Source: Escherichia phage WPEC2
Reading direction: 5' to 3' (one strand)
Sequence record: PV691511.1
DNA: 64,000 bases
In this document: piece after piece, positions 22,376 through 25,583 of the stretch
Numbering within the stretch: position 1 is the stretch's first letter
How the letters are laid out: the number at the start of each line of letters is the position of its first letter
Notes under the pieces: generated by a model
Database searches by the model: none
The model's input: only the letters and a program-made list of their open reading frames with translations
What the model was told of the DNA's origin: nothing
Translations under genes and position numbers: made by a program

Positions 22376-23503
22376 TTATTCTGCTGGTTCCCAAGTGCCT
22401 GGGATCATTTCTCGAATACGAACACCAACAGGTTTTGTTGGAATACCTTCATCTGAAAATTCTTCATACTCTATTTCAACAAACTGATTAATCAAGGTAG
22501 AAGCATTCTCTGCTTTACGATAATTGATAGTCTCATGAGCATCTTTACGCATTAAGAATTCGACTACTTTACCATTTTCCATCTCACCTGTCAACACTCC
22601 ATCGCCATTTTTATCACTTTTTGAATTTGTTACTTTAACTTCAAGGGTATGGCGAGGCTTACGTTTAATAACGTCATAAGAACGTTTATCAAATTCGTAA
22701 ACTCCGTGAGCATTACGATATACTACACCTTCAGCTTTCTCAAGTAAAGCTTTTTCATAGAAAGCATCAAACTGTTCTTGGTTTTCAATATACTCTGTAT
22801 GAACTACACAAATAAGCTCATCAAGACCATAATCTTCAACTACTGCCTTAAGAGCAGCAAGAACATCAACACGTTTTTCAAACGGTAGATCTGGAACTGG
22901 AATATCGTATACGTAATAATTCAGCAAAGGTGTATTTGCATTATGCTTCTTCCAGGCGCTGTTAATTTGTTGCAGACTAAGGACACCTAACCCAGCAAAC
23001 ACTTCACCATCAAGAGGATGACCAACAACTTCACTAATAAAGTTTGGAATACCTTTCCAATGAGGTGGCAGGTTATACACTTCCCCAGCTTTTGATAAAC
23101 ACTCTCCTTTCATGTTAATCATAGAACGTAACCCGTTCAGTTTGTATTGTGCATAACCAGGGAACACAACCCTTTCAGGATAATCTTTATAATCCTGGCA
23201 TTTCATTGGTGTGGAAGGAACATGGTTTTCAGCTTCTTCTTTTGTTTTATAATAACCATTCTTTAACTGTTTTGTCCATTTGGCAAAAGCTTCAAGTTCA
23301 GCTTGTTCTTCCGGTGTTGTTTCATTGGAGCGACCAATGTTTTTTGCTTCTGCTGTATAAGATTTTTCTGTGATTTTTCCACCTACTCTTCCATGAGCTA
23401 CAGTAACAACTGCACCATCTGTATACACTGTCCACTGTTTAAGTTTTCCTTTTGAATCTTTACCATACAGCGTTTGATTTGTTTGTTGCATTAGTCCTCC
23501 CAT
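22376..23503 (-). CDS. ATP-dependent ligase-like nucleotidyltransferase (probable DNA ligase)
   Basis: motif order YKLNGLR (I), LDGEVF (III), EGVVYRN (IV), VIKRKP (V) with C-terminal OB-like region. Confidence 0.6.
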   Translation of the reverse strand: MGGLMQQTNQTLYGKDSKGKLKQWTVYTDGAVVTVAHGRVGGKITEKSYTAEAKNIGRSNETTPEEQAELEAFAKWTKQLKNGYYKTKEEAENHVPSTPMKCQDYKDYPERVVFPGYAQYKLNGLRSMINMKGECLSKAGEVYNLPPHWKGIPNFISEVVGHPLDGEVFAGLGVLSLQQINSAWKKHNANTPLLNYYVYDIPVPDLPFEKRVDVLAALKAVVEDYGLDELICVVHTEYIENQEQFDAFYEKALLEKAEGVVYRNAHGVYEFDKRSYDVIKRKPRHTLEVKVTNSKSDKNGDGVLTGEMENGKVVEFLMRKDAHETINYRKAENASTLINQFVEIEYEEFSDEGIPTKPVGVRIREMIPGTWEPAE

Positions 23504-23712
23504 TTAAAAACTGAAATTTTCAATCTGTTACACACTTCATCCAAATCTGCGTCGAGTAACGTTGTAGATGTTGCCAACATGTAATCAATGCTTGTGAAAC
23601 CTTGCCCTTTGGCATAGTCAAGCATATCTTCATACATATCTTCAAGATCACCGTCATCAAAAGTAGCTAAAAAATCCTCGTCTCCGCTACGAACATAAAA
23701 TGCAGTACTCAT
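23491..23712 (-). CDS. hypothetical acidic protein
   Basis: 73 aa ORF. Confidence 0.4.
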   Translation of the reverse strand: MSTAFYVRSGDEDFLATFDDGDLEDMYEDMLDYAKGQGFTSIDYMLATSTTLLDADLDEVCNRLKISVFKWED

Positions 23713-23900
23713 TCTTCTTCATCCCAAGATTCAAAAGCACAACAATCATCGGTTTCTATAATACCAACACGTCCGCAGGTATTGCAAGTGATTTTATCCC
23801 CGTAGAATAAATAATTTTTATCACCCTCTGTGTTTACAGTTATGTCATTACTACCACAAGGGCAAGTCAGCCAACCAACAACAACGATATCTTTTTTCAT
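23709..23900 (-). CDS. small zinc-ribbon protein
   Basis: CPCGS...CNTCG. Confidence 0.45.
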   Translation of the reverse strand: MKKDIVVVGWLTCPCGSNDITVNTEGDKNYLFYGDKITCNTCGRVGIIETDDCCAFESWDEEE

Positions 23901-23909
23901 AATCCCTCC

Positions 23910-24236
23910 TTAAGCGTTAAGTTCGTTGTTGAGTTCGTAAATCTCTTCTTGAAGAGCATCAATCTCTTCCTCCAAACGGGAGATCTCTTCTTTTAGATAT
24001 ACCATTTCGGATTCTTTCTCTTCTAATTCATTTTCAAATTTTACTTTATTAGCCTCATTTTCATAATGCAGTTCAGCGTAATCATCACGCATTTGTTCAA
24101 TAAGATGAATCAGAGACAAGATATAATTGTCTCCCGTTTCATCACGCCACTCTTCACCGTGACGGAGAACGGTAATTCGTCCAGTATCTTCATCTAAAAT
24201 TGTCTCATATTTACGATCATCTGTATAAATCTGCAT
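23910..24236 (-). CDS. coiled-coil protein
   Basis: 108 aa, E/L-rich heptad-like C-terminus. Confidence 0.45.
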   Translation of the reverse strand: MQIYTDDRKYETILDEDTGRITVLRHGEEWRDETGDNYILSLIHLIEQMRDDYAELHYENEANKVKFENELEEKESEMVYLKEEISRLEEEIDALQEEIYELNNELNA

Positions 24237-24245
24237 TATTTCTCC

Positions 24246-24650
24246 TTATTGAAGTTTAAGTGAACCACGAAGACGTTTCTCTTGCTGATCACGGATATAT
24301 TGTGGAACCTCGTGAATTGAATCATTACCGTGCCTATTTTCAACAACTAAAGAGATAACTTGATAACCAAACTCTTCAGCAAGAGCTAGATAAGGTTTAA
24401 GTTCTTTCTCTGTGGTTGAAGTATTAGAAACAATAATCTTGTTAAGATTAGATGCCATAGCATCACGAACAATACCCTGACACCATGCGTGTGCTTTACC
24501 TACATTTTCTGGCTTCCAATCGTAAACACCACTCTCTGTGTAATGATATTGATCTGCCTCACAGATAGGCCAATAACCTTCAGAAATAATTTCTGCTACT
24601 GTAGATTTACCAGCACCTGAAACACCACGTAAAATGATAAGTTGTTTCAT
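24246..24650 (-). CDS. P-loop kinase, candidate polynucleotide 5'-kinase
   Basis: Walker A GVSGAGKST at N-terminus; size and context with ligase and phosphoesterase. Confidence 0.5.
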   Translation of the reverse strand: MKQLIILRGVSGAGKSTVAEIISEGYWPICEADQYHYTESGVYDWKPENVGKAHAWCQGIVRDAMASNLNKIIVSNTSTTEKELKPYLALAEEFGYQVISLVVENRHGNDSIHEVPQYIRDQQEKRLRGSLKLQ

Positions 24651-25583
24651 TTATCCTCCAAAAAAGTTTTCGATTTTTTCACGTCGCTCTTGCTGATTTA
24701 AAGCAGCCCATTGAATCTTCGTAAAATTATTTCGAATCCATTCTAACAAAGCGTAATATTCTTCGTCAACCATTTGTTTGGCATTTTTTGGATTATCCCA
24801 AATCAGATCCCACTTTTTATCTCCACCGCGCATAAGAAACTTCTTAGTAAGATAGTGTGGTGATTTAATTTTTAAAAGTAAGTTGAACGGATAGTTTGTT
24901 TCACGAACTACAAACCCTTCGTGTTTACAATGTTTAGACATTTCAACAACATCTGAAAACTTAACCATTGGATGAACTTCAGGACGCTTAAATTTGGTGA
25001 CAGAAGCAATTCCATCAAGAGCACCTTCAGGTAACATAAAACTTGTCCCATCAGGATTTTGAATTCTGGCACCAATTAAGTATGCACCTGGTTCTTCTTC
25101 GACAATATGCGGATCAGAAGGATCACAGATTTCAAAAAGGAAAGTTGCTTTTGCACTCTCTGTCCATTTGATGAAATGTTCTATGTCATCACACTCTGAA
25201 ACAATATGATTCTTTGCAATACTTGCAAAATCTGATTCAAGGCTTCCTGTTGTCGATACAATAAGTTGACCTTTATATACACCTACAGAGGCCATAAAAC
25301 CATTTACTTTACGAACCACATCTACAAGTTCATCCGCTGGTAGATCTGTGCCATTCTCAAAACGATTAAAAATCTTAGTGAAAGGCCAAATAACAACATT
25401 GTCATCAGCATCAACAACGATTCCGCGACATTCTAGAAGACGAGAATCAATGCTCCATAAGTTATCCCAGAAAACTTTGTTCTTATACTTAAGAACAGAT
25501 AGACCAGAATACTCTCCTTCTTTATATGTTTTCTTATGAACTAAACCTTTTTCAACCAAATCGTCGCAATTAAATTTAGCCAC
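24651..25583 (-). CDS. RNA ligase-like nucleotidyltransferase
   Basis: RKVNGF (I), FLFEIC (III), EGFVVRE (IV), LKIKS (V); flanked by kinase and phosphoesterase. Confidence 0.5.
   Translation of the reverse strand: MAKFNCDDLVEKGLVHKKTYKEGEYSGLSVLKYKNKVFWDNLWSIDSRLLECRGIVVDADDNVVIWPFTKIFNRFENGTDLPADELVDVVRKVNGFMASVGVYKGQLIVSTTGSLESDFASIAKNHIVSECDDIEHFIKWTESAKATFLFEICDPSDPHIVEEEPGAYLIGARIQNPDGTSFMLPEGALDGIASVTKFKRPEVHPMVKFSDVVEMSKHCKHEGFVVRETNYPFNLLLKIKSPHYLTKKFLMRGGDKKWDLIWDNPKNAKQMVDEEYYALLEWIRNNFTKIQWAALNQQERREKIENFFGG

Follow-up and report, generated by a model that had tools for sequence, protein, structure and literature searches.

Motif I, which holds the lysine nucleophile of DNA and RNA ligases, is usually written K-x-D-G or K-x-H-G; the aspartate at its third position is the usual residue in the superfamily without being indispensable, as African swine fever virus (ASFV) demonstrates with its DNA ligase, and the natural occupants of this position are D, H, N, M and S (PMC4797309). 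The ASFV enzyme, which has K151-R-N153-G, was solved structurally, assayed and found to be active (PMC6344480), the motif I of the active fungal tRNA ligase Trl1 is described as 'KxNG' (PMC6379707), and the archaeal ligase MthRnl is also 'KxNG', its Asn99 being non-essential (PMC4797309). Here we analyzed two ligase genes in a 64,000-nucleotide stretch of Escherichia phage WPEC2 (sequence record PV691511.1; hereafter the window), both of which encode K-x-N-G at the adenylation motif. Based on our results, we propose, with a probability of roughly 90%, that each segment is a true motif I, belonging to one of two covalent nucleotidyltransferases that are active and unrelated to each other, in which asparagine is a lineage-typical replacement of aspartate and reflects neither a misalignment nor a defect.

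Both open reading frames (ORFs) were confirmed on the minus strand, at 22376..23503 (375 amino acids, aa) and 24651..25583 (310 aa), and in the RefSeq genome of phage ukendt they are labeled 'ATP-dependent DNA ligase' (371 aa) and 'putative RNA ligase'. Motif I reads Y-K121-L-N123-G-L-R126 in the DNA ligase and R-K92-V-N94-G-F in the RNA ligase, and K-x-N-G occurs a single time over the full length of each protein, K-x-D-G and K-x-H-G not at all, which leaves no canonical alternative site in either. The two lysines align with the nucleophiles K27 of the Chlorella virus ligase, K151 of the ASFV ligase and K99 of T4 Rnl1. An earlier, sequence-only reading had noticed K-x-N-G in both proteins with motifs III, IV and V at normal spacing, and this is borne out by alignments and residue distances: 46 residues separate K121 from E167 (motif III), 91 more lead to E258 (IV) and 24 to K282 (V) in the DNA ligase, while in the RNA ligase the steps from K92 through E151 and E222 to K240 are 59, 71 and 18 residues, compared with 60, 68 and 15 in T4 Rnl1. 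The same reading allowed that motif I might have been misplaced, which is contradicted here, as every alignment keeps the same lysine; the outcome named beforehand as speaking against K-x-N-G, a catalytic lysine elsewhere in a K-x-D-G context, was sought by alignment and did not appear. Its suggestion of an unusual ligase subfamily holds in part: both enzymes belong to subfamilies in which asparagine is the rule, but K-x-N-G had already been described in the ASFV ligase, Trl1 and MthRnl. Because the motif is documented in the ASFV DNA ligase and the fungal tRNA ligase, the two phage ligases are ordinary members of asparagine-type ligase families.

The DNA ligase matches PF01068 with 38.1 bits (cutoff 26.2) over profile positions 1-204 of 204, and phrog_114 with E 1.9e-74. 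A profile built from 45 of its homologs (A2) was used against solved structures and matched the ASFV ligase (6imj, E 8.4e-24), Psychromonas Lig E (2.2e-18) and the Chlorella virus ligase (1.3e-15), placing K121 in the column of the lysine of ASFV K-R-N-G-V-R, Lig E K-L-D-G-I-R and Chlorella virus K-I-D-G-I-R. The phage enzyme has K-L-N-G-L-R instead of the canonical K-x-D-G-x-R, and the remaining motifs follow in the expected order, with K121, D165-G-E167, E258-G and K280-x-K282 preceding an OB domain that was both modeled and matched. The features of this gene are listed below, with residues counted from 23503, the start of the long ORF; numbers in the A2 profile are 4 lower (D161/E163 = D165/E167).

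22376..23491, minus strand: ATP-dependent DNA ligase coding sequence with the probable start, 371 aa; the mechanical ORF reaches 23503
23204..23491, minus strand: N-terminal alpha/beta DNA-binding domain of the ASFV-ligase type (hidden Markov model (HMM) alignment to ASFV residues 74-120 and whole-chain Foldseek match)
23132..23143, minus strand: motif I, K121-L-N123-G, with the predicted AMP-lysine K121 (alignment to the ASFV, Chlorella virus and Lig E ligases)
23003..23011, minus strand: motif III, D165-G-E167, aligned to D-G-E of ASFV, Lig E and Chlorella virus, with D and E invariant
22970..22978, minus strand: S176-L177-Q178, where L177 is the equivalent of ASFV Leu211 and human LIG1 Phe635
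22727..22732, minus strand: motif IV, E258-G259 (A2 conservation and alignment)
22658..22666, minus strand: motif V, K280-R-K282 (A2 conservation and alignment)
22430..22441, minus strand: OB-domain P-T356-K357-P, aligned with L402-Q403 of ASFV, R-F of the Chlorella virus ligase and R871-F872 of human LIG1

Among 121 DNA ligase sequences (120 close homologs and the query), motif I position 3 is asparagine in 108 and aspartate in 13, with the K and G invariant; S-L-Q is invariant in the A2 profile, and L177 is found in 121/121. Position 3 co-varies with the OB-domain residue in the T356 column, as N occurs with T in 104 of the 121 sequences and D with L in 11. This pattern would be consistent with the two positions being neighbors in the closed complex, although shared ancestry could also explain it. 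In human LIG1, Asp570, the equivalent of ASFV Asn153, forms a salt bridge with Arg871, and the catalytic lysine of the ASFV enzyme is Lys151 (PMC6344480). We propose that in the phage enzyme K121 would attack ATP to form Lys-AMP, the AMP would be passed to the 5'-phosphate of the nick, and the 3'-OH would then seal it. In canonical ligases the motif I aspartate pairs with the OB-domain arginine; in the phage lineage, which lacks this arginine, asparagine may pair with threonine or aspartate with leucine.

The overall architecture also places the DNA ligase beside the ASFV enzyme. The AlphaFold2 (AF2) model has a predicted local distance difference test (pLDDT) score of 93.3, and Foldseek aligned it to the closed ASFV ligase-DNA complexes 6imn, 6iml and 6imk with template modeling (TM) scores of 0.78-0.79 over 411-418 columns; 6imn is the best fold match in the PDB (TM 0.79), followed by T4 ligase (TM 0.60). 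The N-terminal domain (NTD) is mixed alpha/beta instead of a helical DNA-binding domain, the HMM alignment beginning at ASFV residue 74, and it is common to the phage and ASFV ligases, since the whole-chain fold match spans it. Its DNA-contacting loop, K85-N-L-G-K-K-N-A-T-T in ASFV and K-N-I-G-R-S-N-E-T-T in the phage, follows K-N-x-G-x-x-N-x-T-T, and a Q-A in the long helix, including the helix Gln of ASFV, is conserved. We conclude that the DNA ligase is an ASFV-type three-domain enzyme made of an alpha/beta NTD, an adenylation domain and an OB domain. With AsfvLIG (NP419L; PDB 6IMJ/6IMK/6IML/6IMN), its best PDB match in both sequence and fold, it shares this layout, motif I K-x-N-G-x-R, a Leu at the position of Phe635 in human LIG1, the NTD loop, the helix Gln and the lack of the OB-domain Arg-Phe; it differs in an identity of only ~21-22%, a length shorter by ~48 aa, a bacterial host, a T-K pair at the OB nick site where ASFV has L-Q, and a minority of the phage family with Asp. 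Ten NTDs scanned against Pfam gave no model even at E<=10, and a WGR-like domain, which a W...G-R-x-G-G-K...G-Y pattern had brought to mind, was dropped, as these matches were scattered noise without WGR.

The NTD has been called unique to the ASFV ligase (PMC6344480 and the 2020 review PMC7470946), which was a singleton in the review's sequence network (PMC7470946), while Yutin and Koonin had earlier placed it among bacterial and phage ligases (PMC2806865). The NTD and the Asn/Leu features of the nick site, published as unique to ASFV and proposed as drug targets, are in fact common to a broad phage ligase family, in which tractable models from bacterial viruses are available and from which the ASFV enzyme gains an evolutionary source.

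The RNA ligase matches PF09511 (RNA_lig_T4_1) with 56.8 bits (cutoff 28.3) over profile positions 1-227 of 227. A single-sequence search of the PDB with this protein gave no match and profiles were required, with which T4 Rnl1 was reached at E 1e-10 and then 3e-17. K92-V-N-G lies under K99-E-D-G of T4 Rnl1, the Met of the K99M entry 5tt6 falls in the K92 column, and R53, K70, F72, E151, E222-G223 and K238/K240 align with T4 R54, K75, F77, E159, E227-G228 and K240/K242. The AF2 model has a pLDDT of 93.0.

24651..25583, minus strand: 310-aa ATP-dependent RNA ligase, an adenylyltransferase of the Rnl1/Trl1 type whose C-domain is short and helical
25299..25310, minus strand: motif I, K92-V-N94-G, with the predicted AMP-lysine K92 (aligned to T4 Rnl1 K-E-D-G and Trl1 K-E-N-G)
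25245..25256, minus strand: motif Ia region, S110-T-T112-G113, in which Thr replaces the lysine of T4 Rnl1 (K119) and Trl1 (K169)
25107..25136, minus strand: motif III, F150-E151 to D157-P-H159, with H159 aligned to the Trl1 triad histidine
24915..24920, minus strand: motif IV, E222-G223 (profile alignments and conservation)
24828..24872, minus strand: motif V, K238-I-K240, followed by Y244, K248 and R252 (conservation and hhalign)

A full-library profile search returned 7,513 representatives of this family, 3,062 of them at E<=1e-10 and 476 at E<=1e-30. In 151 sequences (the top 150 cluster representatives and the query), K-x-N-G-[FY] is present in 151/151, as is E151, followed by H159 (150/151), E222/G223 (149/151), K238, K240 and K248 (147/151 each) and R252 (146/151); K-x-N-G is also present in all 120 close homologs. 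Position 112 in motif Ia is T in 142 of the 151, S in 8 and K in 1. The motif Ia lysine is essential in T4 Rnl1 (K119) and Trl1 (K135/K169), where it contacts the gamma-phosphate of ATP and presumably the 5'-phosphate of the RNA; as it is replaced here by T112, the contact to the 5'-phosphate and gamma-phosphate must differ somewhat in the phage enzyme.

T4 RNA ligase 1 (RnlA, gp63; PDB 2C5U, 5TT6, 9DO4) is the closest solved relative by sequence; its N-subdomain and motifs align with the phage enzyme, and it too is phage-encoded, with a presumed tRNA-repair role beside a kinase-phosphatase partner. It differs in that its motif I is K-E-D-G, K119 is present in motif Ia, motif III is not followed by a His and the C-terminal tRNA-specificity domain of 120 aa is distinct, and the phage protein scores 24 against the cutoff of 242 of the T4 RnlA equivalog model (NCBIfam TIGR02308). 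The PHROG name of the phage RNA ligase, 'RNA ligase and tail fiber protein attachment catalyst', looks like an unverified transfer from T4 gp63, and its 'tail fibre attachment' part is without support here.

The genes around the RNA ligase point to a role in RNA repair.

25585..26136, minus strand: calcineurin-like metallophosphoesterase, 183 aa, a candidate 3'-end healing enzyme, abutting the start of the RNA ligase
24246..24650, minus strand: P-loop kinase of the AAA_33 type, 134 aa, a candidate 5'-OH polynucleotide kinase that starts directly after the RNA ligase stop
26652..27008, minus strand: cREC (cyclic-phosphate-processing receiver-like) protein (PF20274, E 1.6e-13)

The metallophosphoesterase matches PF00149 (25.1 bits, cutoff 21.5), phrog_547 and PDB 1xm7 (E 3.8e-6), and the kinase PF13671 (41.1 bits, cutoff 27) and phrog_505 'polynucleotide kinase' (E 7.9e-8). 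The phosphoesterase, RNA ligase and kinase genes abut without gaps, and their order, with a DNA ligase following within 1-2 small genes, is kept in relatives of ~50% identity (loci L002-L005). Among the 150 listed representatives of the RNA ligase family, 35 are longer than 400 aa; ten of these were scanned, and four proved to be outright AAA_33-Metallophos-ligase fusions, while a fifth (P0364) has Metallophos-ligase behind an unassigned N-terminus. The operonic linkage of ligase, kinase and phosphoesterase is thus joined by gene fusion, and we regard the fusions as Rosetta-stone support for a heal-and-seal RNA repair unit. The bacterial proteins P0283, P0314, P0326, P0349 and P0388 (loci L007 and L008), 700-812 aa long, fuse the AAA_33 kinase, the metallophosphoesterase and the ligase; one fused gene is followed by an overlapping NUDIX gene and another is flanked by HEAT-repeat and DUF2201 genes. 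Bacterial Pnkp (Clostridium thermocellum Pnkp/Hen1, Rnl4) has the same three activities and the same chemical logic, as far as predicted from the phage genes, and the fused bacterial relatives share its order of kinase, metallophosphoesterase and ligase, but its ligase belongs to a different clade. The same type of neighborhood was described by Iyer et al. in phage rV5 and its relatives (PMC9503650), as was the association of cRec with phage RNA ligases (PMC7824862, PMC9503650). The cREC protein of RefSeq relatives is named 'putative RNA ligase and tail attachment protein', which again looks like an unverified T4 gp63 transfer. In the mechanism that we propose, the RNA ligase would form K92-AMP and seal RNA ends after these have been healed by two neighbors, the metallophosphoesterase (and/or cREC) and the P-loop kinase; tRNAs that host anticodon nucleases have cut are its likely targets.

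Our analyses establish sequence homology, the register of the motifs, their conservation, and the synteny and fusion of the genes. A misassigned motif I, with a fortuitous K-x-N-G and the catalytic lysine elsewhere, is exceedingly improbable: nothing was found in its favor, the same lysine is reached in separate alignments to five solved ligase families, and K, N and G are kept across the families in proteins that offer a single such site. A further alternative is an inactivating change from Asp to Asn, which would leave pseudo-ligases or ligand-binding proteins without joining catalysis. Substitutions of Asp101 in T4 Rnl1 block the steps after adenylylation. The Chlorella virus ligase, as cited in PMC4797309, needs the motif I Asp for step 2. 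We nevertheless consider inactivation very improbable, since every other catalytic residue is invariant (those of motifs III, IV and V as well as RNA ligase R53/K70), the Asn itself is strictly conserved, an Asn at this site leaves both the ASFV ligase and Trl1 active (PMC6344480, PMC6379707), the DNA ligase is the sole PF01068 match among the ORFs scanned in part of the window, and the fused kinase-phosphoesterase-ligase proteins point to a working pathway. Four points nonetheless weigh against our assignment of two active ligases: the catalytic activities, substrates and biological role of both enzymes are predicted from their sequences; the kinase and phosphoesterase assignments are superfamily-level matches only; the RNA ligase family lacks the motif Ia lysine of T4 Rnl1 and Trl1; and N153D of the ASFV ligase was assayed only in combination with other mutations.

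Even if both enzymes are active, the asparagine could carry a special meaning in either. In the DNA ligase, it may, together with Leu177, mark a mismatch-tolerant nick site of low fidelity, as in ASFV. Two of the four nick-site residues called unique to ASFV (N153, L211, L402 and Q403) are common to both enzymes, as N123 and the invariant L177, and T356-K357 replaces the OB-domain Arg-Phe of high-fidelity ligases. Still, we find this doubtful: the ASFV study could not link these residues to fidelity, as its mutants only became less active or inactive (PMC6344480), the OB pair of the phage enzyme is T-K, compared with L-Q in ASFV, Asp is found in 13/121 homologs, and low fidelity would bring no obvious gain to a replicative phage ligase. 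In the RNA ligase, N94, H159 and K248/R252 may form a 2'-phosphate pocket like that of Trl1, so that 3'-OH,2'-PO4 ends would be preferred or required and a 2'-PO4 would be left at the junction, to be removed by a NAD+-dependent enzyme, either the phage sirtuin of Iyer et al. or host KptA. This possibility, which we consider tentative and on balance unlikely, would extend the reading of both proteins as active asparagine-type ligases and does not exclude it, and the evidence for it comes mostly from the comparison with Trl1 that follows.

In Trl1 of Chaetomium thermophilum, N150, H227, R334 and R337 bind a sulfate taken as a mimic of the 2'-PO4 (PMC6379707), the H227A, R334A and R337A changes slow step 2 by 420-, 120- and 60-fold (PMC11404444), and the His-Arg-Arg triad enforces 2'-PO4 specificity (PMC11404444; PMC12440814). 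We aligned 109 diverse members of the RNA ligase family with 26 fungal tRNA ligases, all of them database sequences, using hhalign, which gave a probability of 98.3% and E 1.2e-14 over 254 columns and set K92-V-N94-G over K-E-N-G, the motif I of Trl1-LIG (Rnl6). In C. thermophilum numbering the pairs are K92-K148, N94-N150, E151-E218, H159-H227, E222-E300, R227-R305, K238/K240-K323/K325 and K248-R334, with Met in the R337 column and R252 one column later. Only 17 columns are invariant in the 109 sequences, and N94, H159, K248 and R252 occupy four of them; the His column has Ile in T4 Rnl1 and Tyr in Rnl3. Foldseek ranks Trl1-LIG and T4 Rnl1 equal for the RNA ligase model (E about 1e-12). An S. 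cerevisiae Trl1 sequence served as the query in other alignments; all 26 of its 26 numbered residues agree with the table in PMC6379707, and it retrieved proteins named tRNA ligase. Removal of the 2'-phosphate by a NAD+-dependent enzyme was proposed independently for this type of cassette (PMC9503650), and Macro-domain, nicotinate phosphoribosyltransferase (NAPRTase) and phosphoribosyl pyrophosphate (PRPP) synthetase genes lie directly upstream of the cassette in L004/L005.

The fit to Trl1 is not exact, however. H159 stands at +8 and the Trl1 His at +9, the basic pair after motif V is K-x-x-x-R and not R-x-x-R, and any convergence of the side chains is predicted from sequence alignment. The family is closer by sequence to T4 Rnl1 (E 3e-17), and hmmsearch with profiles A1 and A3 found no Trl1 match even at E<=10, so that the link was seen only via hhalign and the fold search. 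The partner phosphoesterase belongs to a type that usually strips the phosphate completely. No 2H enzyme, Tpt1/KptA or sirtuin (SIR2) was found by Pfam among the ORFs of at least 110 aa between 10 and 40 kb of the window, nor did any of these domains adjoin two fused bacterial homologs; the RefSeq annotation of phage ukendt was uninformative on 2'-phosphate enzymes. Plant tRNA ligases, moreover, depend on the 2'-PO4 without these residues, so that the pocket residues are not diagnostic (PMC12440814). The ligase domain of Trl1 (Rnl6; PDB 6N67, 6N0T/6N0V, 8RBJ), characterized by an all-helical C-domain of its own kind, is fused to a kinase and a 2H cyclic phosphodiesterase (CPD), unlike the phage protein, a separate chain of 310 aa whose C-domain is far shorter, beside a kinase that is a separate AAA_33 protein and with 3'-end healing by the metallophosphoesterase/cREC and no 2H CPD; it also lacks the motif Ia Lys. 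Our alignments suggest a Trl1-like end specificity as a lead, not as a demonstration.

We speculate further, as an idea that is less probable still than the pocket in this one phage enzyme, that the large K-x-N-G-F clade (3,062 representatives at E<=1e-10) may be the prokaryotic and viral counterpart of Trl1-LIG, reading a terminal 2'-phosphate through N94, H159, K248 and R252. If so, these phages and bacteria would repair tRNAs by way of a 2'-PO4 junction cleared by a NAD+-dependent enzyme, and bacterial KptA/Tpt1 homologs or the phage sirtuins of Iyer et al. would gain a natural substrate; we know of no natural source of such a 2'-PO4 substrate established in bacteria. With residues that align to those enforcing 2'-phosphate specificity in the fungal tRNA ligase, the phage clade makes it testable whether a yeast-like pathway of healing, sealing and 2'-phosphate removal operates in bacteria and phages.

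The two asparagines are not coupled functionally, a possibility that we rejected because, in relatives, the RNA ligase has K-x-N-G while the accompanying DNA ligase, of either of two architectures, has K-L-D-G: L002 has a K-I-N-G RNA ligase together with a T4-like K-L-D-G DNA ligase, and L004 a K-V-N-G RNA ligase together with an NTD-type DNA ligase bearing K-L-D-G. From these pairings we conclude that the joint occurrence of K-x-N-G in one phage is a coincidence of two separate lineage traits. On its own, K-x-N-G changes little, since motif I position 3 is variable, and annotators should not require Asp or His there.

The window comes from an E. coli phage of the Phapecoctavirus type: over 8 kb it is 100% identical to Escherichia phages WPEC4, WPEC6 and Mt1B1_P17, and ~98-99% identical to other Phapecoctavirus genomes. 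The DNA ligase probably starts at Met5, with the ATG at 23491, 4 codons inside the mechanical ORF. The sequence ATGGGAGGACTA (window 23491..23503) holds a GGAGG Shine-Dalgarno for this ATG, the GGAGG falling within codons 2-4 when counted in the long ORF, and a length of 371 aa is found in the RefSeq homolog and in cluster P0121; the GGAGG just upstream and the database homologs of this length argue for the start at 23491.

A cluster of phage tRNA genes lies near the cassette and is likely to contain clients of the repair system.

30763..32688, plus strand: cluster of 10 phage tRNA genes (ARAGORN), 4-6 kb from the RNA-repair cassette

At this cluster the GC skew is reversed locally (30-32 kb), in surroundings that are otherwise minus-strand coding. 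The Pfam scan described above yielded only a Macro domain (36769..37254), a phosphoribosyltransferase (PRTase) and a HAD hydrolase, each at a distance of ~10 kb to the cassette; these three genes, the PRTase being ComF-like, stand in a row at 36769..38743 and may act in NAD+/ADP-ribose processing. In relatives, a Thg1-like (3'-5' nucleotidyltransferase) gene precedes the cassette in L002 (2854..3561), and PRPP synthetase, NAPRTase and Macro-domain genes precede it in L004/L005 (1380..4195), which links the cassette to tRNA end repair and to NAD+/ADP-ribose metabolism.

Two conserved ORFs lie in or next to the cassette, at 26136..26492 (118 aa, phrog_839) and 27019..27489 (156 aa); neither has a Pfam match even at E<=5, and although they are candidates for a divergent 'sirtuin' or other end-processing factor of PMC9503650, nothing here supports this. 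The gene at 23910..24236, situated between those of the kinase and the DNA ligase, encodes an acidic coiled-coil protein of 108 aa that bears the PHROG label 'hol-like chemotaxis', its Pfam matches being only low-complexity coiled-coil noise. Further along, a 241-aa protein (21258..21983) matches a MazG/PRA-PH pyrophosphohydrolase only in residues 34-85, its C-terminal ~150 aa being without assignment; the components named for the rV5-type RNA-repair neighborhood include MazG (PMC9503650).

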